Shown: positions 49,055 through 64,000 of the stretch, piece by piece | Position numbering within the stretch: the first letter of the stretch is position 1 | Layout of the letters: every line of letters starts with the position of its first letter | Assembly: GCA_965242865.1 (NCBI GenBank) | Contig: CBDETK010000013.1 | Coordinates: 2,752,001-2,816,000 of the forward strand | DNA length: 64,000 nucleotides | Origin: Candidatus Latescibacterota bacterium | GTDB lineage: Bacteria > Latescibacterota > UBA2968 > UBA8231 | Direction of reading: 5' to 3' | The notes under the pieces: generated by a model | Database searches by the model: none | The model's input: only the letters and a program-made list of their open reading frames with translations | What the model was told of the DNA's origin: nothing | Translations under genes and position numbers: made by a program

Positions 49055-50116
49055 ATGCCCACCTTTTCCATTGAACACTTGCGCCAAGTCGGCGCAGCCA
49101 TCTTCGCGGCAGCCGGTGCGCCCCCCGCAGCGGCCGAGGTCGTCGCCGAGCTGCTGGCCGATGCCAATGCCGTGGGGCACGACTCGCACGGCGTCATCCG
49201 AATCCCCCAATACATAAGCACCATTGAAAAGGGCGAGATCGTTCCCCACGCCGAGGTTGAAGTGGTGCGCCAGACGGCCGCGGCGGCCGTGCTCGACGGG
49301 CACTGGGGGTTTGGCCAAGTCGTGATGAACCAAGCGGTGGAGATGGGTTTGGAACGCGCCAGCCACTGCGGGGTCGCGGCCATAACCGTCAAAAACTCCA
49401 ACCACATCGGGCGGCTCGGCAGCTATGTGGAGCGCGTCGCCACGGCGAACATGATCGGCCTGCTCTGCGCCAACTCGCACGGCGGCGGGGCCAGCGTGGC
49501 TCCTTGGGGCGGCATCGCCGGGCGCTTGGGCACCAACCCGCTGGCCGGCGGCTGGCCAGACGGAGAGGGCGGAGCGCTCGTGCTGGACATCACGACCAGC
49601 GTGGTGGCCGAGGGCAAGGTGCGAGTCAAGCGCAATCGCGGCGAGCCGGTCCCCGAGGGATGGATCATCGACGCGGCCGGCCAGCCATCGACCGATCCCG
49701 CGGATTTTTACGACGAGCCGCGTGGCAGCCTCTTGCCCTTTGGCGGCGTCATGGGCCACAGGGGCTACGGGCTCGGAGTCGTGGTGGAGTTGTTGGGCGG
49801 GGCGCTGAGTGGGGCGGGTTGTGCGCGGGGCCGGAAGGCGCGGATCGGCAACGGCTGCTTTTTGCTGGTCATCGACATTGGGCACTTTCAGCCGCTAGCC
49901 GAGTACGCGGCCCAAGTGCGGGCGTTCGCGGCCTATCTGCGGGCCTCGCCCAAGGCCGCTGGCGTGGCCGCCATCCTGCTGCCCGGAGAGTTGGAAAAGC
50001 GCGCACGGCAGCAGCGGCAGGCCGGGGTGGTCGTCGAGGAAGAGACTTGGCGGCAAATCCTAGATTGCGCCCAGCGAGTGGGTGCTACCCTACCGAGTAT
50101 CAAGGAGCTTACCTAA
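49055..50116 (+). CDS. Ldh_2 family oxidoreductase (malate/L-lactate/ureidoglycolate dehydrogenase-like)
   Basis: GHDSHG, HIGRLG, GTNP, LDITTS and LPGE motifs. Confidence 0.92.
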   Translation: MPTFSIEHLRQVGAAIFAAAGAPPAAAEVVAELLADANAVGHDSHGVIRIPQYISTIEKGEIVPHAEVEVVRQTAAAAVLDGHWGFGQVVMNQAVEMGLERASHCGVAAITVKNSNHIGRLGSYVERVATANMIGLLCANSHGGGASVAPWGGIAGRLGTNPLAGGWPDGEGGALVLDITTSVVAEGKVRVKRNRGEPVPEGWIIDAAGQPSTDPADFYDEPRGSLLPFGGVMGHRGYGLGVVVELLGGALSGAGCARGRKARIGNGCFLLVIDIGHFQPLAEYAAQVRAFAAYLRASPKAAGVAAILLPGELEKRARQQRQAGVVVEEETWRQILDCAQRVGATLPSIKELT

Positions 50117-50145
50117 GTACACGACACTAGCGGCCCGCCTTCCAA

Positions 50146-50172
50146 GGATCGAGGGCGGGACACCCTCGATCC
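50146..50172. repeat. REP-like hairpin GGATCGAGGG-CGGGACA-CCCTCGATCC
   Basis: Perfect 10-bp stem; related degenerate palindromes at about 38014-38053. Confidence 0.6.
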
Positions 50173-50357
50173 CAGGCGCATCGGGAACGACAGCAATTGT
50201 TAAAGCCTGACATCCGCCAGCGAACTCAAGCTACTCAACCGCAACGCCGATCCGACTTCAGCCTTTCATCTTGCTCGCCGTGCCCCCTTCCCCTAAACTG
50301 TCATTCGACAATTGGACGCGCCCTTAACCGACAATCAGCCGCTAATCCAACCGACAA

Positions 50358-51605
50358 ATGGACGCTGACCGATCCCTGTTTCCCCGCTCGCTGGCCCCCG
50401 TCCTCCGCGAGGCTTTGGCCGATACGCCGGTGGTCTGTCTGCTCGGACCGCGGCAAAGTGGGAAAACTACGCTCGTTCAGCAACTCGCGCCGGACCGTGC
50501 ATTCGTCAGCTTGGACGAGCACAATTACTACCAGACCGCCGGTGCCGACCCAGACGGGTTCGTCGCCAGTCTGCCGGAGGCGGTGACCGTGGACGAAGTG
50601 CAACGGGTGCCGGTGCTGCTCTCGGCTATCAAGTGCGCTGTGGATCGGGACCGCCGGCCCGGGCGTTTCCTGCTGACCGGCTCGGCCAATCTACTGCTGG
50701 TGCCGACCGTTACCGAATCGTTGGCGGGACGGATGGAAATGGCGCAGTTGTACCCATTGACCGAATCAGAAAAAGCGCGTCAGCCCGGGTGCTTCCTCCG
50801 CGACTTGTTGAGCGGTGCGCTCAAACCGGGTATCCGGCCCGAAGCGGAGCCTGCTGGTCTATCGCTGGCCGAGCGATTGGTAGCTGGCGGCTATCCCGAG
50901 CCGTTGACCCGGACGTCCAGCCGCGCCCGGCAATGGCACCGGCAGTATCTCCGCAGCATCGTCGAGCGGGATGTGCAAGATGTGGCGCGGGTGAGGGATG
51001 CGCACGAATTGGCTCGCTTGCTCGAACTGCTGGCCCAGCGCAACGCCGCACTATTGAACACCTGCAATCTGGCCAACAGCCTCGGCCTGCACCGGGCGAC
51101 CGTAGAACACTACATCGCTGTACTCGAGCGGCTCTTTCTGGTGCGACGCTTGCCCGCGTGGCACCGCAATCCGGCCAAGCGACTCGTCAAAACACCGAAG
51201 ATCCATCTACTCGATAGCGGGCTGGCGGCGACCCTCGCCGATCTGACTGCGGCCGATTGGCTCGACCATCGGGACCGCATGGGGCATCTACTGGAGTCTT
51301 TTGTGGTGCAGCAACTCATGGCCCAAGCCACGTGGACAGAGCCGGATTTGCGTTTCTGGCACTATCGCGACAAGGATCGGGTGGAGGTCGATGTAGTGCT
51401 TACTCGGGGTCGGAAGACTTGGGGTATTGAGGTCAAAGCCGCCGGGGCACTCGCCGCCAAAGATGGGCGAGGGCTTGTGCGGCTGGCCGATCGCTGTGGC
51501 CGAGATTTCGAGTCCGGGGTGCTGCTCTACGCCGGCCGTGACCGACTCCCGTTGGCCGACGAGCGCATACTCGCCGTGCCGCTGAGCGAGTTGTGGGAGC
51601 GGTAG
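50358..51605 (+). CDS. AAA_14 ATPase with DUF4143 and C-terminal PD-(D/E)xK-like domain
   Basis: GPRQSGKT, DEVQ, LTGS, GGYP, DSG and EVD...IEVK motifs. Confidence 0.92.
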   Translation: MDADRSLFPRSLAPVLREALADTPVVCLLGPRQSGKTTLVQQLAPDRAFVSLDEHNYYQTAGADPDGFVASLPEAVTVDEVQRVPVLLSAIKCAVDRDRRPGRFLLTGSANLLLVPTVTESLAGRMEMAQLYPLTESEKARQPGCFLRDLLSGALKPGIRPEAEPAGLSLAERLVAGGYPEPLTRTSSRARQWHRQYLRSIVERDVQDVARVRDAHELARLLELLAQRNAALLNTCNLANSLGLHRATVEHYIAVLERLFLVRRLPAWHRNPAKRLVKTPKIHLLDSGLAATLADLTAADWLDHRDRMGHLLESFVVQQLMAQATWTEPDLRFWHYRDKDRVEVDVVLTRGRKTWGIEVKAAGALAAKDGRGLVRLADRCGRDFESGVLLYAGRDRLPLADERILAVPLSELWER

Positions 51606-51750
51606 GGCACGAACCGGCGGGTCTTTGTACATTCTATGAGGCAGGCGATCGGCGCGTGGCCGCCCGCTGCCTAGACTGCACGGCACTGCGGAGATTGAGA
51701 ACCGACAAAAGAGATGGGAACGCTCAGGTGCTAGAGAGAGGTATCACTCC

Positions 51751-53133
51751 ATGGACGAGATAACACTCAAGAACTTCCGCTGCTTCCGCGAAGAGCAGAC
51801 CGCCCGCCTCGCGCCGCTGACGCTACTCGTTGGCGAAAATAGTACGGGCAAGACTTCTTTCATGGCGATGATTCGGGCACTGTGGGATGTCGCCTATGGG
51901 CGTCAGGCACCGGATTTTAAGAAAGCTCCTTACGATCTGGGTAGTTTCGACGAAATTGCCCACTACCGAGGGGGCAGGGGAGGCAGGGCCGAGACCTTTG
52001 AGGCTGGGTTTAAGGTCGCCCCAAGATCTGTGCGCCGGAAAAGACGACACACCACCCCTAACAACCAACCCTATCTTTTTGAGATGACTTTCAAGAAAAA
52101 GGGGACCGTACCTATCCCTGTGAATATGCGGCTTTCTAACCAAGATGCTTGGGTCGAGAGCCTGTTTGAAGATCAGTCTTGGCAGATCAGTTTCGGAACA
52201 TCCAGAGGGGTTTGGAAGTCTCCCGATGGCTTCCGAGACCGATTAGATGCCGATCTCGACCTGAACCACCCGATATGGCTCTTTTACTACTATCTAATAG
52301 ATCGGAAGATGGTTGGAAATCAAGAAAGTGAAACAGCCCCAATCACATTTCAAGATTCTGAGTTGCTTACTGATAAAGATTGGGAACTAATCAACCAACT
52401 TATTAGGGTTCACAGACAGAGGAATTTTGAATATCATAGACGGCAGCCATACGCTAGTGCTCCGGTCCGCTCCAAGCCGCGCAGAACCTATGATCCCGCT
52501 CGTTGGTCACCGGATTCTGAGGGCGAATACGTTCCCATGTATCTCGCCGACTTGTACTTCCAAGACCAGCGCAGTTGGACAGAAATGAAAAAGGCTCTAG
52601 AGAGCTTTGGGCAAGCTGCTGGTCTCTTTGATAAAATCTCCATTAAACCGCTGGGGAGAAGGTCCAGTGAACCTTTTCAAGTGCAGGTCAGGAAATTCGA
52701 TGGCGGATTAAAAGGTCCACAGCGCAACCTGATCGACGTCGGCTATGGCGTCAGCCAGATGTTGCCCGTAATAACCGATCTGTTGCGTCATAATGCACCA
52801 CCTATGTTTCTGTTACAGCAGCCAGAAGTGCATCTTCACCCTAGTGCTCAGGCGGCTCTCGGCAGCTTGTTTTGCGAAGTTGCCAATCCGGGTCGGCAAT
52901 TGATAATCGAGACCCACAGCGACCACTTGCTCGACCGGGTGCGGATGGACGTGCGCGACGGCACAACGCCGTTGAAACCCGACGATGTGTCCATTCTGTT
53001 CTTTGAGCGCGGCGGTCTGGATGTGCATATTCACTTGCTCCAAATCGACGAAGAGGGAAACATCTTGGACGCACCCGATGGCTACCGACAGTTCTTCATG
53101 GAAGAAACGGCGAGGTCTTTATGGAAGAGATAG
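51751..53133 (+). CDS. ABC-type AAA_15 ATPase with DUF3696-like C-terminus
   Basis: GENSTGKT, DVGYGVSQ, QQPEVHLHP and ETHS motifs. Confidence 0.88.
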   Translation: MDEITLKNFRCFREEQTARLAPLTLLVGENSTGKTSFMAMIRALWDVAYGRQAPDFKKAPYDLGSFDEIAHYRGGRGGRAETFEAGFKVAPRSVRRKRRHTTPNNQPYLFEMTFKKKGTVPIPVNMRLSNQDAWVESLFEDQSWQISFGTSRGVWKSPDGFRDRLDADLDLNHPIWLFYYYLIDRKMVGNQESETAPITFQDSELLTDKDWELINQLIRVHRQRNFEYHRRQPYASAPVRSKPRRTYDPARWSPDSEGEYVPMYLADLYFQDQRSWTEMKKALESFGQAAGLFDKISIKPLGRRSSEPFQVQVRKFDGGLKGPQRNLIDVGYGVSQMLPVITDLLRHNAPPMFLLQQPEVHLHPSAQAALGSLFCEVANPGRQLIIETHSDHLLDRVRMDVRDGTTPLKPDDVSILFFERGGLDVHIHLLQIDEEGNILDAPDGYRQFFMEETARSLWKR

Positions 53134-53151
53134 TCTATAGGAACCTGAAGA

Positions 53152-53619
53152 ATGTGTGCCATTGTTGACGCCAACGTCGCATCTGAGGTATTTGGTTCTA
53201 AGCCACCGCCAGCAGGAGAGAAGTTCTTTGAATGGCTCAACAAAGGAAATGGCCGGTTGGTGGTCGGCGGCAAGCTGCTTGAGGAACTTGAAAAGAGTTT
53301 GGCGGATTTCAGACGCTGGGGACAGCAGGCTCAGATTGCTGGAAGAATGAGAGTCGTAAATAAAAGAGAAGTTGACGCAAGGACGGAGCAGATCCAGCGT
53401 GAGGATGCAATCAGTTCCGATGATCCACATGTCATTGCCTTGGCTCAAGTCAGCGGAGCCCGGCTGTTGTACTCGAATGATGGCGACTTACAGAAGGATT
53501 TCAGAAACGGAGAACTGATTGACGATCCCCGCGGTAAAGTTTATTCGACACGTAGGAATAAGAGCTTCCAGCACAGTCACGACAAGCTGCTAAAAAACAA
53601 AAAGTTATGCCGTCGATGA
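53152..53619 (+). CDS. PIN-like domain protein
   Basis: IVDANV, SDDPHVIALA and LYSNDGDL acidic residues. Confidence 0.75.
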   Translation: MCAIVDANVASEVFGSKPPPAGEKFFEWLNKGNGRLVVGGKLLEELEKSLADFRRWGQQAQIAGRMRVVNKREVDARTEQIQREDAISSDDPHVIALAQVSGARLLYSNDGDLQKDFRNGELIDDPRGKVYSTRRNKSFQHSHDKLLKNKKLCRR

Positions 53620-53668
53620 TTTGGGGCTAAAGCCCTACGCTGCTATAGCCATCCTACATCATTCAAGA

Positions 53669-53695
53669 CTGGATTCCCGCTTTCGCGGGAATGAC
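53669..53695. repeat. REP-like palindrome CTGGATTCCCGCTTTCGCGGGAATGAC
   Basis: ATTCCCGC-TTTC-GCGGGAAT stem-loop. Confidence 0.75.
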
Positions 53696-53773
53696 GCCTC
53701 GTAAGCAAAAAACAGTGCCGATGAACGTTCCATGCTTTCAAGTCACTTAGGACTGTTATAGGACACGAAAATT

Positions 53774-55777
53774 ATGCAAAAACTCATTGCTAACGACCCA
53801 GAGACGCGCTCGGCGGACATGGTGGCTGATAACATCAAACACCTGAAGACCCTGTTTCCCGAAGCCGTTGCCGAGGACAAGATCGACTTCGAGGTGCTCA
53901 GGCAGCTGCTGGGCGGCGAGATCGCCGATCGCGAGGAGAAGTACGGCCTCAACTGGCACGGCAAGTGCCGGGCGCGGCAGCTTGCTCTGACGCCTTCGAC
54001 CGGCACTCTGCGCCCCTGCCCGGAGGAAAGCGTCGATTGGGAAACGACGCAAAACCTGATGATCGAGGGCGACAACCTAGAGGTGCTCAAGCTGTTGCAG
54101 AAGAGCTACGCTGGGAAGGTGAAGCTGATTTACATTGACCCGCCGTACAACACGGGGAAGGACTTCGTCTATCCCGACGACTACCGGGATAGCATGCGGA
54201 ATTATCAGAAGTTGACGGGACAGACCGGCGACGATAACCGAAAGTTGTCGTCGAATACGGAGGCATCGGGACGGTTCCACACGGACTGGCTGAACATGAT
54301 GTATCCACGGCTGAAGTTGGCGCGGAATCTACTGACATCCGATGGAGCTATTTTCGCATCAATAGACGAAATGGAGCATACGCGCCTTCGAGTAGCAATG
54401 GACGAAATTTTCGGTCAAGAGAACTTTGTTGCCGACATGGTGTGGGCAGCAGGCCGCAAGAATGATTCAAAGCTTATCTCCGTATCTCACGAATATATCG
54501 TTTGTTACGTGCGCGATCATGGACACCTGCGCGAGCAAAAAATTTTGTGGAGACAGCGAAAAAAAGGACTCGAAGATATATACGCGCAATACAAAAAAAT
54601 CAATAGACAATACGGCGATGACTTTGCGGCAATGACCAAGGCATTGAAGCGGTGGTATAGGGACCTGCCTGATAGTCATCCGGCAAAGGCACACAAACAC
54701 TATTCTCAGGTTGACAGGCGAGGTATTTACTTTCGTGACAATATCTCATGGCCAGGTGGTGGAGGCCCGAAATACGAAGTTCTGCACCCCGTTACAAAAA
54801 AACCTGTAATGGTTCCATCGCGAGGTTGGATGACGAGTGACCCTATAAAAATGAAAAACTGGATCGATGAAGACCTCGTCCACTTTGGACGAGACGAAAC
54901 AGGTGTGCCCTGTATCAAATCGTACCTTGTGGACAGAGAATATCAAGTGCCGTATAGTGTTTTCTACCAAGATGGAAGATCCGCTTTTAAGCGACTGCGT
55001 TCCTTGATGGGAGCACCCTGTTTTGATCACCCTAAAGATGAAAATATGCTTCAAGAAATCGTCGGCATGATGACTTCCAAAGACGACATTTGCTTAGACT
55101 GCTTTGCCGGTTCAGGTACGTTCTACCATTCCGTCACGGCTCAGAACGCCTTGGATGGAGGGAAGCGACGTTGTTTATTGGTCCAACTCCCGGAACGCCT
55201 CGATCCAAGTATTAAGGAGCAGAAAATTGCCGCAGAATACTGTGATTCCATTGGTAAGCCCCGCACCATAGCGGAGTTGACGAAAGAGCGTCTTCGCCGT
55301 ACGGGAAGCAAGATCAAGGAAGCGAATCCGCAATTCACGGGCGACCTCGGCTTCCGCGTCTTCAAACTGGGCACGTCCAACATCCACGCTTGGGAGCCGG
55401 ATGGCGACGACCTAAAACAGACGCTACTCGACAGCATCGACCACATCAAATCGGATCGAACCCAAGACGACATCCTCTACGAGTTGCTACTCAAGCTCGG
55501 CCTCGACTTGTGCGTCCCCGTCGAGACCCGGACCATCGCGGGCAAGGCCGTGCGTTCCATCGGGGCCGGCACGTTGATCTCCTGCCTCGACGAGCACATC
55601 GCCCGCAAGGAAGTCGATTCGCTGGCCCTCGGCATGGCTGATTGGCACAAGCAACTCGAACCTACGGGCGACGCCACGGTGATTTTCCGCGACAGTGCCT
55701 TTGAGGACGATGTGGCTAAGACGAACTTGGCGGCCATTCTGGAGCAGCACGGTCTCGGCAACGTGCGGAGTCTATAA
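53774..55777 (+). CDS. mod: Type III R-M methyltransferase Mod, copy 1
   Basis: EGDNLEVLK, IYIDPPY, WLNMMYPRL, HPK and FAGSGT (beta-class order). Confidence 0.93.
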   Translation: MQKLIANDPETRSADMVADNIKHLKTLFPEAVAEDKIDFEVLRQLLGGEIADREEKYGLNWHGKCRARQLALTPSTGTLRPCPEESVDWETTQNLMIEGDNLEVLKLLQKSYAGKVKLIYIDPPYNTGKDFVYPDDYRDSMRNYQKLTGQTGDDNRKLSSNTEASGRFHTDWLNMMYPRLKLARNLLTSDGAIFASIDEMEHTRLRVAMDEIFGQENFVADMVWAAGRKNDSKLISVSHEYIVCYVRDHGHLREQKILWRQRKKGLEDIYAQYKKINRQYGDDFAAMTKALKRWYRDLPDSHPAKAHKHYSQVDRRGIYFRDNISWPGGGGPKYEVLHPVTKKPVMVPSRGWMTSDPIKMKNWIDEDLVHFGRDETGVPCIKSYLVDREYQVPYSVFYQDGRSAFKRLRSLMGAPCFDHPKDENMLQEIVGMMTSKDDICLDCFAGSGTFYHSVTAQNALDGGKRRCLLVQLPERLDPSIKEQKIAAEYCDSIGKPRTIAELTKERLRRTGSKIKEANPQFTGDLGFRVFKLGTSNIHAWEPDGDDLKQTLLDSIDHIKSDRTQDDILYELLLKLGLDLCVPVETRTIAGKAVRSIGAGTLISCLDEHIARKEVDSLALGMADWHKQLEPTGDATVIFRDSAFEDDVAKTNLAAILEQHGLGNVRSL

Positions 55778-55856
55778 ACACCGCTAAAGTTGATGGTTCG
55801 CCATCCCATTCCCTTCTGATGAGGGGCGAATGACGAAAAGGTAAGGAGATAGGACG

Positions 55857-56096
55857 ATGCCTAATGACAGAGCATGGAACGAGACGCTGATTGAAAGAAA
55901 CGTGACGTACCATATTGAGTTCGATGGGCGGCTCTTCCTCATTGAAAACGTCCCGGCACGAGTCAATGTCGAGACGGGTGAAAGGCATTTCTCACCGGAG
56001 ACCGTTGAGCACTTGCAGCAAGCGGTGTGGGACCAATGCCGCCCCGTTCGCACCATTGAGACGCCGGTTTATGATTATGCAAAAACTCATTGCTAA
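55857..56096 (+). CDS. YgiT-type zinc-finger-like protein lacking the Cys ligands
   Basis: IENVPARV..ETGE..FSPETV motif; TAAGGAG RBS; 3' end overlaps the mod2 start. Confidence 0.8.
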   Translation: MPNDRAWNETLIERNVTYHIEFDGRLFLIENVPARVNVETGERHFSPETVEHLQQAVWDQCRPVRTIETPVYDYAKTHC

Positions 56097-58026
56097 CGAC
56101 CCAGAGACGCGCTCGGCGGACATGGTGGCTGATAACATCGAGCACCTAAAGGCCCTGTTTCCCGAAGCCGTTGCCGAGGACAAGATCGACTTCGAGGTGC
56201 TCAAGCAACTGCTGGGCGACGAGGTAGAAGATCGCGAGGAGAAGTACGGCCTCAACTGGCACGGCAAGCACCGGGCGCGGCAGCTTGCCCTGACGCCTTC
56301 GACCGGCACCCTGCGCCCCTGCCCAGAGGAAAGCGTCGATTGGGACACGACGCAAAACCTGATGATCGAGGGCGACAACCTAGAGGTGCTCAAGCTGTTG
56401 CAGAAGAGCTACGCCGGAAAGGTGAAGCTGATTTACATTGACCCGCCGTACAACACGGGGAAGGACTTCGTCTATCCCGACGATTATCGGGACAGTATGC
56501 GGAATTATCAGAAGTTGACAGGGCAGACGGATGGACAGAACGGCAAGGTGTCGTCGAACACGGAGACATCGGGACGGTTCCACACGGACTGGCTAAACAT
56601 GATGTATCCACGCTTGAAGGTAGCAAGGAATTTGCTAACAAGTGACGGTATAATACTCATATCCATAGGGGACGAGGAGTTGCACAATCTGCGAGTCGTC
56701 TGTGACGAAATTTTTGGCTACGAAAATTTTTGTGGCACCTTTATATGGGAAAAAAAGAAGAAACCTTCTTTTTTGGATCGGAACATGGGTACAGTCACGG
56801 ATTACATTGTCGCCTATGCAAAAGACCGTTCACAATCTCCGGCCTTTACAACTGGGTCGGTCGAAAAAGAAAAGAAATATCCCTTTAACAATGCGGGCAA
56901 CAACATGGCCGTGTTGGAATTTCCAGCGGCAAGCGTGACCTTCGGGATTAACGATCAGATCGTTACAGCCCAAGACATGTCTGAGGGGAACATCAAGACC
57001 GTGTTGCTCGACGATGTTCACATTGTAAAAGGGAGAAACAGCAATGCTTTTCGGCTACTTGGTGAATGGCGGTACTCGCAAGCCAAACTCAACGAATTCG
57101 TAGCTGCCAACGCAGATATTCTTATCAGCAGGGTTCCGTTTCGTCCCAACTACGTGAATCAGTCGGGCGACGAGAAAAAGATAGCGAACCTTCTTTCCTA
57201 CAGAATCAACGCTGTTCAGACCAACGAAGATGCCACTCAGCAAACACGAGAAATTTTTGGCGCGGATGTTGTCTCCTATCCCAAGCCGGAAGGCTTGCTC
57301 AAGTACTTGATAAGGGCCGTTTCGCGGGAGGACGATATTATTTTGGATTTTTTTGCCGGCTCAGGGACGACAGCTTCGGGCGTCTGGAGGCAAAATGCTG
57401 AAGATTCGTGCTCGCGGCGCTTCATCTTAGTGCAGTTGCCCCAACCGCTCGATACGAAAGACCAGGCTCAGGTGGTTGGGGCCGATTTCTGCGACCAAAT
57501 TGGACGATCCCGCAACTTAGCGGAGTTGACGAAAGAGCGACTACGCAGATCCGCGAAACAAATCGCAAAAGAGACACCGCTTTTCGCAGGCGACTTTGGC
57601 TTTTTAGTCCTCAAGCTCGCGACCTCAAACATTCAATCTTGGATCACCAAATCTGAAAATCTCGAGCAATCCATCCTTGACCATGTAGAAAATATAAAGA
57701 AAGGCCGAACCGACTACGACCTCCTTTTTGAACTCATGTTGAAGATGGGTCTCGATCTCTGTGTTTCCATCGAATCGCGAGTGATTGCAGGAAGGACTGT
57801 GTACTCAATCGGTGCTGGAATACTGTTTGCCTGCTTTGAGCATGATCTTGTACAAGAAGAAGCTCAGCAACTCGGATTCGGCATCTCGGCGTGGCAAAAA
57901 GAACAGTCTCCGGCCAGTGAAAGCACCGTTATCTTTCGAGACAGCGGCTTTGTTGACGATAGAGCAAAGCTAAATCTAACCGCCGCCCTAGAGCAGTCCG
58001 GCGTGACAAATATCAGGAGTCTTTAA
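56077..58026 (+). CDS. mod: Type III R-M methyltransferase Mod, copy 2 (different TRD)
   Basis: DPPY, YPKP and DFFAGSGT motifs. Start placed at ATG 56077 by homology to copy 1. Confidence 0.93.
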   Translation: MQKLIANDPETRSADMVADNIEHLKALFPEAVAEDKIDFEVLKQLLGDEVEDREEKYGLNWHGKHRARQLALTPSTGTLRPCPEESVDWDTTQNLMIEGDNLEVLKLLQKSYAGKVKLIYIDPPYNTGKDFVYPDDYRDSMRNYQKLTGQTDGQNGKVSSNTETSGRFHTDWLNMMYPRLKVARNLLTSDGIILISIGDEELHNLRVVCDEIFGYENFCGTFIWEKKKKPSFLDRNMGTVTDYIVAYAKDRSQSPAFTTGSVEKEKKYPFNNAGNNMAVLEFPAASVTFGINDQIVTAQDMSEGNIKTVLLDDVHIVKGRNSNAFRLLGEWRYSQAKLNEFVAANADILISRVPFRPNYVNQSGDEKKIANLLSYRINAVQTNEDATQQTREIFGADVVSYPKPEGLLKYLIRAVSREDDIILDFFAGSGTTASGVWRQNAEDSCSRRFILVQLPQPLDTKDQAQVVGADFCDQIGRSRNLAELTKERLRRSAKQIAKETPLFAGDFGFLVLKLATSNIQSWITKSENLEQSILDHVENIKKGRTDYDLLFELMLKMGLDLCVSIESRVIAGRTVYSIGAGILFACFEHDLVQEEAQQLGFGISAWQKEQSPASESTVIFRDSGFVDDRAKLNLTAALEQSGVTNIRSL

Positions 58027-58029
58027 CCG

Positions 58030-59037
58030 ATGACCAATCACCTCCCTACAGGGTCTTTCTCAACATGGAAGGTAGCTGAGTTTAGGGACTCGCTAAATTC
58101 GACGTTGAAGGAAGATCGAAAAAAAGGAGACGCGCAGCTACGTCTCTATTTTTACGCCGTAACGAAGCGAGGATGGGATGAAATTCGCACGAGCACTTTG
58201 AGCTGGATGAGATTCGATCGGCGTCGTAAAGTATTCGCGTATGTTGGAACGGATCATGCGATCACAGATCCGGAAGGATTGAAAGCCATGGCTGATGACG
58301 GCGTCACTGTTCGCCTTATGAGCAACTATCGGGGCGTATTTCATCCGAAGGTTGTATGGCTCGATCACTCTACACGATGCCGAGTGTGGATTGGTAGTAA
58401 CAATCTCACTCGCGATGGACTGATCAACAACATCGAATTTGCCGCGATGATCCAGTCAGACGACGCTCCTCAAGAACTTAGAAAATGGGCTGATGAGATT
58501 CACGCAGGAAGCATTACACTGACGGAGGATAACCTAAGTTCCTATCGAAATGAGCGTCATAAGTTCGAGAGAGCACACATGCGAGCCGGGATGGCAACAT
58601 TTACTTGGTGTTTGAAGCGCGAGCCGCCCGCTGCAAAGCGATCTGTTGCTAAGGTCGATCTTATCGTCGAGGTTATGCCCAAGGAGACTGGGGCTGGCGG
58701 CAAACATATTCAGATCCCTATCCAAGCGGCAAAAGAATTTTTCAAACTCAGCGGTTCCAGAAAAGTTACTCTGACCGAAAAGAACAACAGGCGGTCGAAA
58801 CGCGAATTAACAATGACGTTATTTCCAAACCGTACTGTCCGGCTCGTCATCAATGAATTGGAATACCGCGATCGCCCATGCGTTGTTCTCTTTCATAGAA
58901 CGGGCTCAGACCGATACCAGTTTGAAATCATTCCCGAATCTATTTTTCCGACTCGATACAGAAGTCTGCTCGCGCTCTGTGACCGCCAGACACATCCCAA
59001 GAGCAGACGCTGGGGCATCGTAAAAAACGCACCATGA
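58030..59037 (+). CDS. PLD-family (BfiI/NgoFVII-like) endonuclease with a C-terminal putative DNA-binding domain
   Basis: FHPK....GSNNLT..G...NIE single-HxK motif; ATGA overlap with res. Confidence 0.8.
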   Translation: MTNHLPTGSFSTWKVAEFRDSLNSTLKEDRKKGDAQLRLYFYAVTKRGWDEIRTSTLSWMRFDRRRKVFAYVGTDHAITDPEGLKAMADDGVTVRLMSNYRGVFHPKVVWLDHSTRCRVWIGSNNLTRDGLINNIEFAAMIQSDDAPQELRKWADEIHAGSITLTEDNLSSYRNERHKFERAHMRAGMATFTWCLKREPPAAKRSVAKVDLIVEVMPKETGAGGKHIQIPIQAAKEFFKLSGSRKVTLTEKNNRRSKRELTMTLFPNRTVRLVINELEYRDRPCVVLFHRTGSDRYQFEIIPESIFPTRYRSLLALCDRQTHPKSRRWGIVKNAP

Positions 59038-61991
59038 AACTCCACTTTGAACCCAACCTCGACTACCAACTCCAAGCCATTGAAGCAGTCTGCGACCTGT
59101 TTCGCGGCCAAGAGGTCTGCCGCTCCGAATTCACAGTCGTACGCAATGCGGCGGATGCTCAGGCTGGCCTCGGCTTTGCAGAAAGCGATCTGGGCACCGG
59201 CAATCGCCTAAACCTGCCCGATGAGGAGATATTCGCCAATCTCAACGATGTCCAACTCCGCAACGGCTTGCTTCCTTCGGCCTCCTTGGATTCGGGCGAT
59301 TTCACCGTGGAGATGGAGACCGGCACCGGCAAGACCTATGTGTACCTACGCACCATCTTCGAGCTAAACAAACGCTACGGCTTCACCAAGTTCGTCATCG
59401 TCGTGCCGTCGGTCGCCATCAAGGAGGGCGTGTACAAGTCGCTCCAGATCACCGCCGACCACTTCCGGGCACTCTACTCGGGCACGCCCTTTGAATACTT
59501 CCTCTACGACTCGGCCAAACTCGGTCAAGTGCGAAACTTTGCCACCAGTCCGCAGATTCAGATCATGGTGGTAACGGTTGGTGCTATTAACAAAAGGGAC
59601 GTCAACAACCTCTATAAGGACAGCGAGAAGACGGGCGGCGAAAAGCCGATTGACCTAATCCGGGCCACGCGCCCCATCCTGATCGTCGATGAGCCGCAGA
59701 GCGTAGATGGTGGTTTGCAGGGGCGCGGTAGAGAAGCCCTCGGCGCCATGAATCCCCTCTGCACGCTGCGCTACTCGGCGACACACGCCGACGAGCACCA
59801 GATGGTCTATCGGCTCGACGCGGTAGATGCCTACGAGCGCAAGCTGGTCAAGCAAATCGAGGTAGCATCGGCGACCGTCGAAGACGCCCACAACAAGCCC
59901 TACGTCCGCCTAGTGTCAACGCGCAACTTGCGCGGCACGATCCGCGCCAGGGTCGAACTCGATGTCGAAACGGCGACTGGGATCCGGCGGCGGGAAGTCG
60001 CGGTCCAAGATGGAGACGATCTCGAACAAACCACCAAACGTGCGATCTACCACAATTGCCGCATCGGCGAAATTCGCGTCAAAAAGGGCGACGAATTCGT
60101 CGAGTTGCGCGTACCCGGCGGCGAACACTTTCTCCGGCTGGGAGAAGCCTACGGCGACGTGGATGCGCTCGCTGTCCAGCGCGAGATGATTCGCCGCACC
60201 ATTCGCGAGCACTTCGACAAAGAGAAGCACCTGCGCCCGCAAGGGGTCAAGGTGCTCAGTCTGTTTTTCATCGATGCGGTAGATCGCTACCGGCAGTACG
60301 ACCACGCGGGTCAGCCGGTCAAGGGCGACTACGCCCAGATTTTTGAGGAAGAGTATCGGCGTCTCTCCACGCATCCAGACTACCAGCACCTCTTTGACAA
60401 CGCGCGCGTCGAGGATGTCCACAACGGCTACTTCTCCATCGACAAAAAGGGGGGCTGGACAGATACCGCCGAGAACAACCAGCCCCAGCGCGACAACGCC
60501 GAGCGAGCTTACAACCTGATCATGCGGGACAAAGAGAAGCTCCTGAGCCTAGAGACGCCGCTCAAGTTCATCTTCTCGCACTCAGCCCTGCGCGAAGGCT
60601 GGGACAACCCCAACGTCTTTCAACTATGTACGCTCCGCACCATTCGCACCGAGCGGGAGCGGAGGCAGACCATCGGGCGCGGCCTGCGCCTGTGCGTCAA
60701 TCAAAAAGGCGAGCGGCAACGCGGCTTCGGGGTCAATACGCTCACGGTCATTGCTACGGAGAGCTACGAAGAATTTGCCGAGAACCTCCAGCAGGAAATC
60801 GAGACCGACACCGGCATCCGCTTCGGCGTCGTAGAGGCGCACCAGTTTGCGGCCATTCCGGTCATCGGCACGGATGGACAGACGACGGCTCTCGGTTCCG
60901 CAGCGTCGAAGAATTTGTGGGACCATCTGAAAGCAGAGGGATATATCGACGCGACCGGGCGAATCGAGGACGCGCTCCGAGCGGCCCTCAAGGACGATAC
61001 CTTCAGCGTACCCGAGGAATTCGTCGATCAGCGTCGAGAGATCGCCAAGGTGCTACGCAAATTCGCCGGGCGTCTAACCATCAAAAACGCCGACGAGCGC
61101 CGCTCAATTCGCCCGCGCCGCGCCGTGCTCCACAGCCAAGAGTTCAGGGCGCTGTGGGACCGCATCAAACACAAGACCACGTACCGCGTCGAGTTCGATA
61201 ACCGAGCCCTGCTCGCACAGTGCATCAAAGCACTGGACGATGCCCCGCCGATCCCTCGTCCCCGGCTCCAGTGGCGCAAGGCCGACATCGCCATCGGCCA
61301 ATCAGGAGTCGAGGCGACCGAACGCGCGGGGGCAGCCTTAGTGGGGCTGGACGAAGCCGAGATAGAGCTACCCGATGTGCTCACTGAGCTTCAGGACCGG
61401 ACGCAACTCACGCGCCGCAGCATACAGCGCATCCTCTGTGCGACCGAACGCCTCGCCGATTTCGAGCGAAACCCGCAACCATTCATCGAACTCGCCGCGC
61501 AAGCCATCAACCGCTGCAAGCGTCTCGCCTTGGTCGATGGCGTCAAGTACCAGCGTCTCGGCGACGAGTGCTACTATGCACAGAAGCTCTTTGAAAACGA
61601 GGAACTAACCGGCTATCTGAAGAACGTACTTTCGGACACGACGAAGTCCGTGTACGATCAGGTCGTGTACGACTCCGAAACGGAGAAATCCTTTGCCGAG
61701 CAGTTGGAGAACAACACTGAGGTCAAGGTGTACGCCAAGCTGCCGGGATGGTTCACGGTGCCGACGCCGCTTGGAAGCTATAACCCAGACTGGGCCGTGT
61801 TCGTGGAGAAAGACGGAGGCGAGCGGCTGTATTTTGTAGTCGAAACGAAAGCCAGCCTGTTCGCCAGCGATCTCCGCGATGCCGAAAGAGCCAAGATCGA
61901 GTGTGGCAAGGCGCACTTTGCCGCACTCACCGTGAGCGAGTCGCCGGTGCATTACCAAACGGCCCGCTCCCTAGAAGACGTATCCTGTTGA
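59034..61991 (+). CDS. res: Type III R-M restriction subunit Res
   Basis: METGTGKT, DEPQ, YSATH, LREGWDNPN, QTIGRGLR and PDW...VETK motifs. Confidence 0.95.
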   Translation: MKLHFEPNLDYQLQAIEAVCDLFRGQEVCRSEFTVVRNAADAQAGLGFAESDLGTGNRLNLPDEEIFANLNDVQLRNGLLPSASLDSGDFTVEMETGTGKTYVYLRTIFELNKRYGFTKFVIVVPSVAIKEGVYKSLQITADHFRALYSGTPFEYFLYDSAKLGQVRNFATSPQIQIMVVTVGAINKRDVNNLYKDSEKTGGEKPIDLIRATRPILIVDEPQSVDGGLQGRGREALGAMNPLCTLRYSATHADEHQMVYRLDAVDAYERKLVKQIEVASATVEDAHNKPYVRLVSTRNLRGTIRARVELDVETATGIRRREVAVQDGDDLEQTTKRAIYHNCRIGEIRVKKGDEFVELRVPGGEHFLRLGEAYGDVDALAVQREMIRRTIREHFDKEKHLRPQGVKVLSLFFIDAVDRYRQYDHAGQPVKGDYAQIFEEEYRRLSTHPDYQHLFDNARVEDVHNGYFSIDKKGGWTDTAENNQPQRDNAERAYNLIMRDKEKLLSLETPLKFIFSHSALREGWDNPNVFQLCTLRTIRTERERRQTIGRGLRLCVNQKGERQRGFGVNTLTVIATESYEEFAENLQQEIETDTGIRFGVVEAHQFAAIPVIGTDGQTTALGSAASKNLWDHLKAEGYIDATGRIEDALRAALKDDTFSVPEEFVDQRREIAKVLRKFAGRLTIKNADERRSIRPRRAVLHSQEFRALWDRIKHKTTYRVEFDNRALLAQCIKALDDAPPIPRPRLQWRKADIAIGQSGVEATERAGAALVGLDEAEIELPDVLTELQDRTQLTRRSIQRILCATERLADFERNPQPFIELAAQAINRCKRLALVDGVKYQRLGDECYYAQKLFENEELTGYLKNVLSDTTKSVYDQVVYDSETEKSFAEQLENNTEVKVYAKLPGWFTVPTPLGSYNPDWAVFVEKDGGERLYFVVETKASLFASDLRDAERAKIECGKAHFAALTVSESPVHYQTARSLEDVSC

Positions 61992-62026
61992 TCCTATTCC
62001 CGATTCACCACCCAAAGGAACCCACC

Positions 62027-63517
62027 ATGACCGACCGCCCCAACGTCCTCGTAATAATGACCGACCAGCAGCGCGCCACAGCCAGCCATCTCTACGGCAA
62101 CACCTTTTGTCAAACCCCGTCGATGGAACGCCTAGCGGCCGACGGGGTGCTCTTTGAGAATGCAATTACCCCGCACCCGCTTTGCGCGCCCGCGCGGATC
62201 TCGTTTTGGACTTCGCAATTTCCCCATTCGCACGGAGGTCGGCGCAACCAGACCTTGATGCCGGCCGGGGCCGAGCACGCTTGGCAGCTCTGGAAGGCGG
62301 CTGGCTACGCCACGGGCTTGATCGGCAAAAATCACTGCTTCGATCGGGAGGAAGACTTGGCGCTTTTCGACGTGTGGAATGCCTTTACCCACGGCGGGCG
62401 CGCCGAGGGGCCGCAGACGCGAGGCATGGACTGGTTCCGGCCGGAATCAGGGCGTCGCAAGGTCGCGGCCGAGCATCGCCAACTCGCCCATCAGAATCCC
62501 CGCTTTAGCTATGGCACCTCCGAGTTGCCGCTAGAGGACCACTCAACCGGCCTAATCGCCGGGCAGACGACGCGCTTTCTCGAAAAGCATCGAGACCAGC
62601 CCTTTGCCCTGTGGGTTTCCTTTCCCGACCCGCACGAGCCGTGGCTGTGCCCAGCCGAGTACGCGGCCTTGTTTCCGCCCACAGCCATTGACCTGCCCGC
62701 TTGGCGCGACGGCGAATTTGACGACGAGCGCGCCCCCGAGCGCAACCGCGTACTCTACCAAATGCTGGGCGTGCGCCGCGATCCGCCCGAAGACCTCTAC
62801 GGCGTCATGGCCTCGTACTTTGGCATGGTGCGCTTTATCGACGACGCGCTCGGCCAGATACTCGACAAGCTCGACGAATTGGGTTTGCGGGAGCAGACGA
62901 TTGTGGTCTTTTGCTCGGACCACGGCGACTTCATGGGCGAACACGCCATGCAGTGCAAGGGCGGGGTCTTCTACGACAGCCTGACGTGCGTGCCCTTGAT
63001 CGTCTCTTGGCCCGGGCAGGTGGCCGCCGGGGTGCGCGACCGGAGCATGGCCAATCTAATCGACGTGGTGCCGACGCTGTTGCACTTGCAGGGACTGGAG
63101 CAGCCGCGCTCCATGCACGGGACGCCGTTGCCCACCGCGACGAAGGCCGCGCCCCGGGCCGCGACCTTTTCCGAATACGGCAGCGGCGGGCCGCTCTTTA
63201 CCATGGCCGACTTGCAAAAGCTACCTCAACCTTGGGGACGCAAGACCTTGATCGACACCTTGCAGTGGCGCGAGGCGGCTGGCCGGTGCAAGATGGTCCG
63301 CACCCGCGAATGGAAGTACGTCCACGACCCCATGGGCGACCGCGACGAACTCTACGACCTCGTCGCCGACCGCGGCGAGTTGGTCAATGTGATCGACGAG
63401 GAGTCACACCGCGACGTCCTCGCAGACCTGCGCCAGCGGCTGGCCGACTGGAGCATCAACACCGAAGATGGTCGCCCGGTGCCCTTGCCCGACCGCGCCC
63501 ACTACGAGCTGGCCTGA
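62027..63517 (+). CDS. Cys-type sulfatase
   Basis: TDQQR, LCAPAR (CxPxR), GKNH, DPH and SDHGD motifs. Confidence 0.92.
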   Translation: MTDRPNVLVIMTDQQRATASHLYGNTFCQTPSMERLAADGVLFENAITPHPLCAPARISFWTSQFPHSHGGRRNQTLMPAGAEHAWQLWKAAGYATGLIGKNHCFDREEDLALFDVWNAFTHGGRAEGPQTRGMDWFRPESGRRKVAAEHRQLAHQNPRFSYGTSELPLEDHSTGLIAGQTTRFLEKHRDQPFALWVSFPDPHEPWLCPAEYAALFPPTAIDLPAWRDGEFDDERAPERNRVLYQMLGVRRDPPEDLYGVMASYFGMVRFIDDALGQILDKLDELGLREQTIVVFCSDHGDFMGEHAMQCKGGVFYDSLTCVPLIVSWPGQVAAGVRDRSMANLIDVVPTLLHLQGLEQPRSMHGTPLPTATKAAPRAATFSEYGSGGPLFTMADLQKLPQPWGRKTLIDTLQWREAAGRCKMVRTREWKYVHDPMGDRDELYDLVADRGELVNVIDEESHRDVLADLRQRLADWSINTEDGRPVPLPDRAHYELA

Positions 63518-63781
63518 CGCTTGACACTCGTGCGACATGACCCATCCCGACGCTATGAAAGGCTAACAGTGATGACACCAAGTCGAGAATTAGCAACGAT
63601 CCAAAAGGTTGATCTTAGCATAGAAACCGAACGCGAAGACGACGGGCGCTGGATTGCCGAAATCGTCGAGATATCCGGTGCGGTGGCCTATGGCGCGACC
63701 GTTGAGGAGGCCTCCGCAAAGGTCCAAGCACTCGCCCTGCGCATCTTGGCGGAACGCCTTGATGTAGCTGACGCTTGACAC
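63514..63781. mobile_element. HicB-like mini-insertion flanked by 14-bp perfect direct repeats
   Basis: CTGACGCTTGACAC at 63514-63527 and 63768-63781. Confidence 0.65.
63572..63778 (+). CDS. Short HicB-like antitoxin, orphan
   Basis: IETEREDDGRWIAEI....GAVAYG.T.EEA..KVQALALR motif. Start uncertain. No hicA nearby. Confidence 0.75.
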   Translation: MTPSRELATIQKVDLSIETEREDDGRWIAEIVEISGAVAYGATVEEASAKVQALALRILAERLDVADA

Positions 63782-63804
63782 CATCGGCGCACCGCTGGTA
63801 TTTT
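63775..63804 (+). promoter_or_regulatory. Sigma70 promoter with extended -10
   Basis: TTGACA-18 bp-TATTTT, with TG one base upstream of the -10. Confidence 0.6.
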
Positions 63805-63811
63805 ATACGCC

Positions 63812-63919
63812 ATGATTTCTGCTATGCACACAGTCGCGTTCGCAGCGTATCCCAGCGGATTTCCGTCGGGGCCGACGGCTTCCCCTACCCCTACTACGAC
63901 ATGGATATGCGCCGGATAG
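63812..63919 (+). CDS. Putative Thr-rich attenuator leader peptide (35 aa)
   Basis: MISAMHTVAFAAYPSGFPSGPTASPTPTTTWICAG, located between the promoter and the terminator. Confidence 0.6.
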   Translation: MISAMHTVAFAAYPSGFPSGPTASPTPTTTWICAG

Positions 63920-63948
63920 CGACGGACTAAAATTTATTGCAACCTTTC

Positions 63949-63981
63949 CCCGCTGTCGGCCGCGATGACAGCGGGTTTTTT
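63949..63981 (+). terminator. Rho-independent terminator (attenuator)
   Basis: CCCGCTGTC-loop-GACAGCGGG-TTTTTT, followed by GAGGAG for a gene beyond the window. Confidence 0.85.
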
Positions 63982-64000
63982 CGTGCCGAGGAGTGCGTCA

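Follow-up and report, generated by a model that had tools for sequence, protein, structure and literature searches.

A Type III restriction-modification locus in which two intact methyltransferase genes stand in tandem before a single restriction gene (order mod1 - ygiT - mod2 - PLD - res) was found in the 64,000-nt stretch of DNA analysed here, hereafter the window. We consider it likely, with a probability of about 0.7, that the tandem is the trimmed remainder of two allelic Type III cassettes, stacked through an accidental joint, a leftover that proved long-lived. It would be a clear natural example of a restriction system gaining a second specificity by the stacking of alleles of one locus, and keeping it for a long time. 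A dedicated switch, as had been proposed in the original prediction, is unlikely, and the locus carries a warning for annotation: long direct repeats where neighbouring mod genes begin are not enough to diagnose a switch. Type III systems recognise an asymmetric target, methylate one of its strands, and need two inversely oriented sites for cleavage. The features of the locus are the following.

53671..53695, + strand: REP-like hairpin element, upstream of mod1 and outside the repeat
53771..54312, + strand: repeat copy 1, comprising 3 nt before the ATG and codons 1-180 of mod1
53774..55777, + strand: mod1, intact Type III N6-adenine methyltransferase subunit, 667 aa
55809..55856, + strand: leader of a former toxin-antitoxin operon, from comparison with the relative G023
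55857..56096, + strand: YgiT-type zinc-finger ORF, 79 aa, an orphan antitoxin-like gene between mod1 and mod2
56073..56080, + strand: illegitimate joint between the ygiT 3' end and a mod 5' end, seen when the window, G023, copy 1 and G046 are compared
56074..56615, + strand: repeat copy 2, the equivalent part of mod2
56077..58026, + strand: mod2, intact Type III Mod, 649 aa
58030..59037, + strand: PLD gene, 335 aa, with an N-terminal HKD/PLD nuclease domain and a C-terminal B3-like DNA-binding domain
59034..61991, + strand: res, Type III restriction subunit, 985 aa, with an SF2 helicase and a C-terminal endonuclease domain

Genes and direct repeat

Both Mods have DPPY at aa 122, before the recognition domain, and FAGSG after it (aa 444 in Mod1, 426 in Mod2), which is the arrangement of beta-class N6-adenine methyltransferases, and neither frame contains an internal stop. 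Matches to the PADLOC MTase_III model had E values of 2.6e-212 and 1.1e-209, and Mod1 aligned to the EcoP15I Mod (4zcf_A) with an E value of 1.3e-73. The start of mod2 was set at the ATG by homology to mod1 and to relatives; an upstream TTG at 55915 is the alternative in the ORF list. The recognition domains of the two Mods (about 54313-55250 in mod1) are unrelated, and their C-termini are 48-50% identical. The sole res of the locus lies 3' of both mods on the same strand, its start overlapping the end of the PLD gene by 4 nt. Its product has the SF2 helicase core and C-terminal endonuclease domain of a Type III Res (Pfam ResIII, DEAD and RE_endonuc; PADLOC REase_III, E value of 0 over 1-983), while its match to NCBIfam PRK15483 (E 3.8e-112) scored 376 bits, below the 564-bit cut-off of that model.

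A direct repeat of about 540 bp at the 5' ends of both mods, with an offset of 2303 bp, had been announced in the original prediction. Pairwise alignment and a position count bore this out, with 502 of 542 bases identical (92.6%). Each copy starts 3 nt 5' of the mod ATG and ends past the WLNMMYPR codons, where identity falls off as sharply as had been claimed, from 84% to 61%. A repeat search of 50000-64000 returned a single direct-repeat family (53771-54070 and 56074-56373, spacing 2303) and no inverted repeat of 30 nt or more. The copies are similar rather than identical: perfect runs reach 68 nt, followed by runs of 66, 65 and 51 nt, and identity segment by segment is 97, 91, 98 and 84%, then 61% in 54301-54430. 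Differing positions amount to 40 in 542 (7.4%) and reach 16% in the last 120 bp; of the differing codons among the 180 in common, 18 are synonymous and 14 non-synonymous. The 3' segment of copy 2 (equivalent to 54181-54300), 84% identical to copy 1, is 61-82% identical to the sequences of the nine relatives compared. By alignment to 4zcf_A, and from the domain description drawn from PMC4490356, the repeat covers the N-terminal dimerisation domain of Mod and the first half of its methyltransferase domain. The predicted composition was likewise found on measurement: GC is 0.57-0.58 in the repeat, 0.467 in the AT-richer centre of mod1 and 0.596 at its host-like 3' end (window, 0.601), and it is low in the mod2 recognition domain (0.456), the mod2 3' part (0.498) and the PLD gene (0.489), with res at 0.594.

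The joint, the relatives and the proposed origin

The 1761-bp segment between the copies holds only the mod1 recognition domain, the mod1 C-terminus and ygiT, whose last codons lie inside copy 2 and whose stop is 17 nt beyond the mod2 ATG. In the relative G023, the order is res, a 65-bp 3' fragment of a DUF4143 gene, a DUF4258 ORF, a YgiT ORF and a sulfatase gene. Homology of the window to this DUF4258-ygiT unit stops at 56080, inside TATGC (56076-56080), a microhomology common to both parental sequences at the ygiT/mod joint. The DUF4258 toxin gene, 106 aa long in G023, is cleanly deleted in the window at about 55838-55841. In a second relative, G042, the ygiT-like gene also lies downstream of res and adjoins the sulfatase gene. 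Neither this illegitimate joint at the left end of copy 2 nor the place of ygiT and DUF4258 in relatives was part of the original prediction.

When 132 genomes of the class were searched with the N-terminus, two full-length, highly similar adjacent copies were found only in the present genome, and each of the 8 loci cut out around res orthologues had one full mod. Two intact tandem mods before one res were present in 2 of 80 metagenome loci of the same family (L091 and L115), which speaks for the viability of two Mods with one Res. The sister species G046 has DUF4143, a PIN remnant, a single mod orthologous to mod2 (92% aa), PLD (74%), res (91%) and sulfatase. Window segments 53759-54335 and 56074-63527 both align to its locus (L029) from about 6034-6045 onward, and it corresponds to a single-mod form with a copy-1-type upstream flank and a mod2 body. 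A 113-bp stretch missing from G046 contains the REP-like element, which accounts for the very high read depth at 53671..53695. In a maximum-likelihood tree, copies 1 and 2 are sisters (98/95) inside a clade with G046 (99/98); they have 5 derived sites in common, against 1 and 1 for the alternative groupings. The G046 N-terminus is a patchwork, agreeing with copy 1 at 23 sites and with copy 2 at 18 and standing alone at 18, so that more recombination must have occurred in its history than a simple model allows.

The mods themselves are mosaics, with a breakpoint at conserved methyltransferase motifs. Their N-terminus is closest to G046 and follows the species, while the mod1 recognition domain is closest to G029, a genome of another family whose mod is mod1-type (79%); nucleotide identity of mod1 to this other-family genome is 89% at the start of the recognition domain and 80% in the N-terminus. 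In G007 the mod is of the mod2 type, at 80% aa along its full length. The C-terminal domain of Mod1 is of the type usual in the genus, being 82-87% identical to its counterparts in G002, G013 and G023, whose Res are 87% identical to the present one. Relics of second cassettes were found in other genomes of the genus: an extra 83-aa mod N-terminal fragment in G023, a 5' piece of res next to the sulfatase gene in G002 and G013, and, in G042, a 5' piece of res that precedes a broken mod. Frameshifted mods occur in G042, G096 and G085, and broken res genes in G042 and G096.

We propose that the repeat is the conserved 5' coding region common to two allelic Type III mod genes that now stand in tandem, and that the site between the DUF4143 ATPase gene and the sulfatase gene is a hotspot for the exchange, stacking and erosion of Type III cassettes. 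A genus-type cassette (mod1 ... res, with the DUF4258-ygiT pair) would have been joined head to tail with a mod2-PLD-res cassette. The joining itself, visible at the TATGC where the ygiT 3' end meets the mod start, was illegitimate, with one end probably anchored by homology. Later, as comparison with the relatives shows, the upstream cassette lost its res and toxin genes, leaving the order mod1 - ygiT - mod2 - PLD - res, and the tandem has lasted long enough for the copies to diverge, by 3-16% depending on the segment. A foreign TRD/PLD block joined to a copy of the resident mod N-terminus had been proposed originally; the mosaic part of that proposal agrees with the sister N-termini, the unrelated recognition domains, the low-GC block and the mod-PLD-res unit, but either cassette may have been the resident one. 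Set against the sister genome, the tandem formally amounts to an insertion whose target duplication is long (542 bp). The data would be explained about equally well if, instead of an insertion in the present lineage, the G046 lineage had descended from a tandem ancestor and undergone deletion between the repeats.

Persistence of the tandem and rival readings

Contigs from 3 of 4 public sequencing runs, belonging to two studies, connect the mod1 recognition domain, by way of ygiT, to the 5' end of mod2 (X13, 54280-56173; X1, 54280-56121; X10, 54153-56103, just 30 nt beyond the joint). Contig depths of mod1 and mod2 were equal in two of the three informative runs, at 165.7 and 161.8 in X10 (flanks 130-193), and 10.5 and 10.7 in X1 (flanks 10.5-14). 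In X13, the mod1 contig had a depth of 196.9, compared to 94.7 for mod2-PLD and 92.7 for the upstream flank, a two-fold difference that falls outside the stacked-cassette model and may come from further strains in which the locus is arranged differently. In two other runs, strains that are about 2% diverged kept the mod1-ygiT-mod2 joint, and the only indel reported in them within 54280-56121 is intergenic, at 55788. Ten mod1 differences were listed for these strains (of about 40 in the contig), 5 of them synonymous and the other 5 changing 4 codons, a small sample that leans towards constraint.

On balance, and judging from sequence, we favour the view that both Mods methylate, and that the system would have two specificities because both are able to serve the single Res. 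In EcoP15I (PMC4490356), one Mod contacts Res through its C-terminal and methyltransferase domains. The 5' region encoding the dimerisation interface is nearly the same in the two genes, which therefore raises the question whether the two Mods share one Res or pair together. Alternatively, mod1 could be a neutral relic of an eroded cassette with no role in restriction, silent or an orphan methylase unable to pair with Res, in a tandem simply not lost yet. The upstream cassette has indeed decayed, having lost res, the DUF4143 fragment and the toxin gene, Type III genes of the same family are often broken in relatives (G042, G096, G085), and promoter and terminator scans found sites no more numerous than in shuffled sequence. 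Nevertheless, mod1 is complete at 667 aa and has both catalytic motifs, no indel in it is reported from two strain variants of about 2% divergence, and half of its few listed strain differences are synonymous; moreover, its type of C-terminal domain accompanies a near-identical Res in three species of the genus. We regard the relic as an unlikely alternative.

Much less probable is a working recombinational switch, in which frequent crossing-over between the repeats would pop out mod1 and ygiT as a 2.3-kb circle and so produce mixed one-mod and two-mod cells with two methylomes. The geometry is correct, as had been predicted: perfect runs of 51-68 nt are available for RecA-type recombination, and a crossover would remove 2303 bp, taking away the mod1 recognition domain and C-terminus together with ygiT, so that a mod2-type gene stays behind. 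The predicted product, with the mod1 upstream flank and N-terminus followed by the mod2 recognition domain, PLD and res, is the form present in G046. The copies, being sisters, must also have had their sequence in common, or exchanged it, at some time, and in X1 the depth of two short contigs within the repeat is roughly doubled (23.7 and 21.2, versus 10.5); where differences from copy 1 are listed, 5 of 8 show the copy-2 base, a possible trace of conversion between copies. However, a 2303-bp skip was absent from the contigs of the 4 runs, which is weak evidence, contigs losing rare variants such that circles or rare deletions are invisible there; the only joint listed, from 53695 to 59675 in X1, has 22 nt on one side and begins in the REP-like element. 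The equal depths of mod1 and mod2 in X10 and X1 also speak against a switch. Frequent exchange would have kept the copies nearly identical, yet they are 7.4% diverged, and 16% in the last 120 bp; frequent deletion would have erased the tandem, yet strains about 2% apart retain it. Deletion would be irreversible, because the circle lacks any means of replicating or integrating. No recombinase, integrase, invertase or transposase was detected by Pfam in the 9 ORFs of 50358-63517, inverted repeats are absent, and a regex scan of the mods found no homopolymer above 7 nt and no 2-7-nt unit at 4 or more copies (TRF reported only two 20-nt two-copy arrays, both in res). The original prediction was thus right that simple-sequence repeats and an invertase are missing, and right about what recombination could excise, but population-level methylome variation by a switch is not borne out. 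Under the stacked-cassette reading, the repeats can undergo general homologous recombination, and the resulting loss would rather be one-way and rare.

It is also very doubtful that the 2303-bp unit (recognition domain, C-terminus, ygiT and one mod N-terminus) is a mobile specificity cassette, leaving as a circle and entering other resident mods by single crossing-over. Were it one, the mod 5' region would act as an attachment site, one Res would gain and shed specificities with no recombinase, and, the family being widely spread and conserved at the N-terminus, any of its resident mods could be a target.

Finally, a false tandem stitched from two strain alleles of one mod locus, conceivable for a metagenome-derived genome of 13 contigs from samples with related strains, and named in the original prediction as what would overturn it, is ruled out for practical purposes by the tandem-specific ygiT-mod joint in contigs of three runs from two studies and by the full flank depth of mod1 and mod2 in X10 and X1, where two alternative alleles should each show only a complementary part of it.

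Comparison with known systems

Tandem mod-mod-res loci have been described before. Type III loci with several mods and a single res are found in Mycoplasma agalactiae 5632 (MAGa1570/MAGa1580, PMC9465063) and M. hyorhinis SK76 (PMC13736764), and M. bovis PG45 has three mods and one res (bioRxiv 10.64898/2026.05.01.722158). The present locus resembles them in having at least two full-length, paralogous, co-oriented mods in tandem before one res, with conserved ends and a differing centre. It differs in the AG or GA simple-sequence repeats that switch the mycoplasma mods on and off, of which it has none, and in the foreign small gene between its mods. The mycoplasma paralogues, moreover, are about 65-70% identical overall, whereas here the first 180 codons are 93% identical and the C-termini 48-50%. 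The tract of simple-sequence repeats in the mod frame that marks a phasevarion is absent from both genes.

Insertion of restriction-modification genes with long target duplication was reportedly noted by Nobusato et al. in 2000. Repeats of up to 417/423 bp are given for such insertions by Furuta, Abe and Kobayashi 2010 (PMC2853133). Here too both copies align to one sequence in G046 that has no insert, the repeat is hundreds of bp long (above 30 bp), and neither a transposase or integrase gene nor any other mobile element is present. The insertions as defined in that report contain R and M genes, whereas the insert here has only a mod recognition domain, C-terminus and ygiT; the duplicated "target" is moreover coding sequence that completes a second mod in frame, unlike the cases presented there. 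According to Furuta and Kobayashi 2012 (PMC3467074), homologous recombination at conserved flanks moves recognition domains between Type III mods, and in Haemophilus a hypervariable mod centre goes with a conserved res (PMC1557822). The mosaic mods, with a species-type N-terminus and, in mod1, a recognition domain like that of another family, recall these cases, but the cases described swap one domain for another, while here both alleles stand side by side.

Type I switches rely on duplicated hsdS genes, inverted repeats and a recombinase (PMC10123105). The likeness lies in duplicated, specificity-bearing sequence with common repeats. As outlined in that source, hsdS switches are reversible and combine inverted repeats between expressed and silent, partial copies with, as a rule, a site-specific recombinase. 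The present locus has direct repeats and two complete genes, a recombinase was looked for there and not found, and deletion is the sole outcome.

The PLD gene has the domain layout of BfiI and of the NgoAVII R-protein, and no account of a PLD nuclease gene conserved between mod and res was found in the literature searched. A mod-PLD-res unit is present in 9 of 14 genome loci, from several phyla. Beside the main finding, this BfiI/NgoAVII-like gene between mod and res, in many phyla, is the more unusual feature of the locus.

The tandem mod genes and their 5′ repeat

A repeat search over 50000–64000 returned one family of direct repeats, whose copies start 2303 bp apart at 53771 and 56074; it detected no inverted repeats in this interval. 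Pairwise alignment and direct counting placed the limits at 53771–54312 (copy 1) and 56074–56615 (copy 2), with 502 of 542 positions identical (92.6%), and each copy begins 3 nt 5′ of an ATG. The original prediction of a direct repeat at both mod 5′ ends, at a 2303-bp offset, is thus borne out. The “DNA identity” that it described does end right after the WLNMMYPR codons, where mod1/mod2 identity is 61% over the next 130 bp, but the copies are similar rather than identical: four consecutive segments score 97, 91, 98 and 84%, and the longest perfect runs are 68, 66, 65 and 51 nt.

Features of the locus (profile searches; for mod1 and mod2, also pairwise comparison)
Upstream neighbours: DUF4143/AAA_14 gene, AAA_15/AAA_21 ATPase gene, PIN-domain gene
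53774–55777: mod1, full-length Type III Mod (methyltransferase/recognition subunit), 667 aa
55857–56096: YgiT-type zinc-finger ORF between mod1 and mod2, 79 aa, its last codons within repeat copy 2
56077–58026: mod2, full-length Type III Mod, 649 aa
58030–59037: PLD-domain gene, 3′ of mod2, 335 aa
59034–61991: res, the sole Type III restriction subunit gene of the locus
Downstream neighbour of res: sulfatase gene

DPPY and FAGSG are present in both Mods, which are 93% identical over aa 1–180, have unrelated recognition domains and are 48% identical over their last 269 aa. According to the alignment of Mod1 with EcoP15I Mod and the available part of PMC4490356, the 180 residues in common span the N-terminal domain and reach halfway through the methyltransferase domain. 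In the EcoP15I structure, as that part describes it, the N-terminal domain and the methyltransferase part make up the Mod dimer, and the C-terminal domain contacts Res together with the methyltransferase domain; this C-terminal domain, Res-contacting by the same alignment, differs between Mod1 and Mod2. GC measurement confirmed the earlier description of an AT-richer centre in mod1, host-like GC again at the mod1 3′ end, and a continuous lower-GC block from the mod2 recognition domain to res. Tandem-repeat and pattern scans detected no simple-sequence repeats in mod1 or mod2, in keeping with the original prediction of variation without them. Promoter and terminator scans of 53100–59200 gave sites no more numerous than in shuffled sequence.

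The upstream genes (50358–53619) resemble defence genes as well: PADLOC candidate PDC-S01 is matched by the DUF4143/AAA_14 protein (E 6e-154), and NsnB by the AAA_15/AAA_21/DUF3696 ATPase (E 7e-48), after which comes a 155-aa PIN-domain protein. Between these genes and mod1, an element at 53646–53758 contains a REP-like hairpin, GGATTCCCGC-N4-GCGGGAATGAC, at 53671–53695. At up to 2 mismatches the genome holds 98 copies of it (50 forward, 48 reverse) versus 0 for a reversed control, and it is responsible for read-depth peaks as high as 120,000 in public runs. The hairpin lies inside a 113-bp stretch missing at this place in the sister species, G046.

The tandem in public runs and in relatives

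Four public runs containing the stretch were compared, all as contigs, which cannot reveal rare variants. In three of them, a single contig links the mod1 recognition domain, ygiT and the mod2 5′ end.

Contigs crossing the ygiT-mod2 joint
54280–56173: run X13
54280–56121: run X1
54153–56103: run X10, reaching just 30 nt beyond the joint

Contig depth was equal for mod1, mod2 and the flanks in X10 and X1, which argues against two alternative strain alleles. Together with the joint-crossing contigs, this contradicts the idea that the tandem is a chimeric assembly of two such alleles. X1 and X13 represent strain variants, with about 40 differences per 1.85 kb, and the sole indel listed within 54280–56121 is intergenic, at 55788. 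No joint skipping 2303 bp is listed in the four runs, a weak negative given that contigs are blind to rare variants. The sole listed joint, from 53695 to 59675 with a 22-nt side, starts in the REP-like element and is most likely repeat noise. Depth was uneven in X13: the mod1-ygiT contig (54280–56173) stood at 196.9, twice the 94.7 of the mod2-PLD contig (56743–58947) and the 92.7 measured for the upstream flank, with the res contigs deeper still (318–497). Such unevenness hints that strains arranged differently at this locus co-exist. An exact-match scan of metagenome contigs with the 27-nt ygiT/mod joint gave 0 matches.

When all 31 genomes of the genus and 132 of the class were searched with the first 185 Mod residues, two full-length, highly similar mod copies side by side were found in this genome only; one relative, G023, has an additional 83-aa mod N-terminal fragment. 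Res orthologues in genus and class are 69–86% identical (amino acids) among full-length matches, and each of eight loci cut out around them has one full mod. Genus members share a site layout that runs from DUF4143 through res to the sulfatase gene. The mod of G007 is of mod2 type (80% over its whole length) and that of G029, from another family, of mod1 type (79%); next to this Res lineage, the mod2 type is found in just two closely related genomes, so that any Res positions co-varying with the two Mod C-terminal types could not be told apart from the effect of close kinship. Two intact tandem mods before one res were also present in 2 of 80 metagenome loci of this Type III family (L091 and L115), the DNA of their N-termini being just 45–83% identical when compared in 90-nt windows. 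Frameshifts or internal deletions affect Type III genes of the family in several relatives, namely mod and res in G042 and G096, and mod in G085.

The sister species G046 (locus L029) was found by a search with the PLD protein. Its locus comprises DUF4143, an 89-bp PIN remnant, a single mod2-type mod (92%), PLD (74%), res (91%) and the sulfatase gene. Window segments 53759–54335 (copy 1 and its upstream flank) and 56074–63527 both align to one G046 sequence, so that G046 has exactly the single-mod form expected from a crossover between the repeats. It could equally be a starting form for insertion. In the available part of PMC2853133, insertion with long target duplication is the name for restriction-modification genes lying between long direct repeats, both of which match a single copy in a related genome.

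History of the repeat copies and of the site

A maximum-likelihood tree of the N-terminal DNA pairs copy 1 with copy 2 as sisters (98/95), in a clade that includes G046 (99/98). With ancestral bases taken from six further genomes, 5 derived sites are common to both copies and 1 to each alternative pairing. Hence copy 1 and copy 2 had sequence in common later than the split from G046; conversion could explain this, as could an origin of both alleles in a single species. That conversion alone made the copies similar is unproven, since donor and recipient alleles of one species would also give sisters. Since then, differences have accumulated at 40 of the 542 positions, 25 of them at third codon positions, and the differing codons are synonymous in 18 cases and non-synonymous in 14. 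The last 120 bp of copy 2 have no close relative (61–82%), and the G046 N-terminus is a patchwork of copy-1-like and copy-2-like sites. This divergence, the patchwork and the strain variants that keep the tandem point to an old, stable arrangement with occasional recombination; it does not look like frequent exchange or deletion between the copies. Of the proposed variation by repeat recombination, the predicted single-mod form is thus found in G046, but frequent deletion or exchange is disfavoured by the 7.4% divergence, the retained tandem and the lack of a 2303-bp skip in contigs.

Relatives also bear on how the tandem arose. In G023, res is followed by a 65-bp copy of the DUF4143 3′ end, a 106-aa DUF4258 ORF, a 78-aa YgiT ORF and the sulfatase gene; ygiT adjoins the sulfatase gene in G042 too. 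The window matches the G023 DUF4258-ygiT unit at 55809–55844 and 55838–56080, and the DUF4258 toxin ORF is absent between the two stretches. The match stops inside TATGC (56076–56080), which is also the start of every mod compared (T-ATG-C). This ending bears the signature of an illegitimate, microhomology-mediated joint, by which the end of one cassette was linked to the beginning of another. At the same site, further genomes of the genus retain remains of a second cassette: a res 5′ fragment adjoins the sulfatase gene in G002 and G013, another lies ahead of the broken mod in G042, and the G023 mod fragment is such a relic too. The 230 bp between that fragment and the full mod of G023 have no match in the window or in six other loci compared. 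The slot between mod and res is variable, with PLD in this genome and G046, hicA/hicB in G002 and G013, hicB with truncated hicA in G007, and an 827-aa TIR-NTPase gene followed by hicB in G023 (cargo at L021 4302–4765, L022 4489–4952, L024 9927–10393 and L023 7359–10250). From the toxin-antitoxin joint, the second-cassette relics and the variable slot, we conclude that the site acts as a hotspot for the exchange, stacking and erosion of Type III cassettes, and that the present structure is a trimmed stack.

The 65-bp copy of the DUF4143 3′ end (window 51543–51607; 94–95% identical) lies 3′ of res in three genus genomes (L021 1030–1094, L022 1303–1367, L023 13375–13439), so that in these genomes a long target duplication encloses the AAA15-PIN-mod-res block as well.

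Function of the two Mods and the PLD protein

The locus has two intact mods and one res, and switch hardware is absent. We infer that both Mods are made, each methylating its own targets. That both can arm the single Res appears slightly more probable than the contrary. The Mod1 C-terminal domain is 82–87% identical to those of three genus species whose Res is 87% identical to this Res, and that of Mod2 is the type adjoining the G046 Res (91% identical to this Res). The near-identity of the N-terminal domains might also allow mixed Mod1-Mod2 dimers. If the repeats recombined by a crossover, the mod1 specificity would be lost together with ygiT. In Type III systems, Mod provides target recognition for cleavage and methylation alike, so this loss should be tolerated; it would not be reversible.

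Tandem mods before one res, as here, are described in mycoplasmas, where simple-sequence repeats, lacking here, do the switching (available parts of PMC9465063, bioRxiv 10.64898/2026.05.01.722158 and PMC13736764). In Helicobacter, mods have been described as mosaics whose recognition domains are mobile (PMC3467074, likewise in part). The present locus is a combination of these known features, tandem mods, mosaic mods and long target duplication.

A model of the PLD protein (pLDDT 83) matches BfiI over its full length (E 5e-13) and also has matches to the NgoAVII R-protein and to the DNA-recognition domain of BfiI. The protein thus combines a PLD nuclease domain with a B3-like DNA-binding domain. 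CglI and NgoAVII are, in the available part of their descriptions, three-gene systems of methylase, BfiI-like R-protein and helicase. The PLD protein may be the third component of a Type III subfamily. A literature search found no description of such a protein inside Type III operons, and the mod-PLD-res arrangement may merit separate study. Its family comprises 314 proteins at E ≤ 0.001 among 1181 candidates scored. Of 14 genome loci in several phyla, 9 have the PLD gene between a mod and a res of this Type III family, and at one further PLD locus the contig ends after the gene (window 58030–59037; loci L031–L038, L042 and L044).
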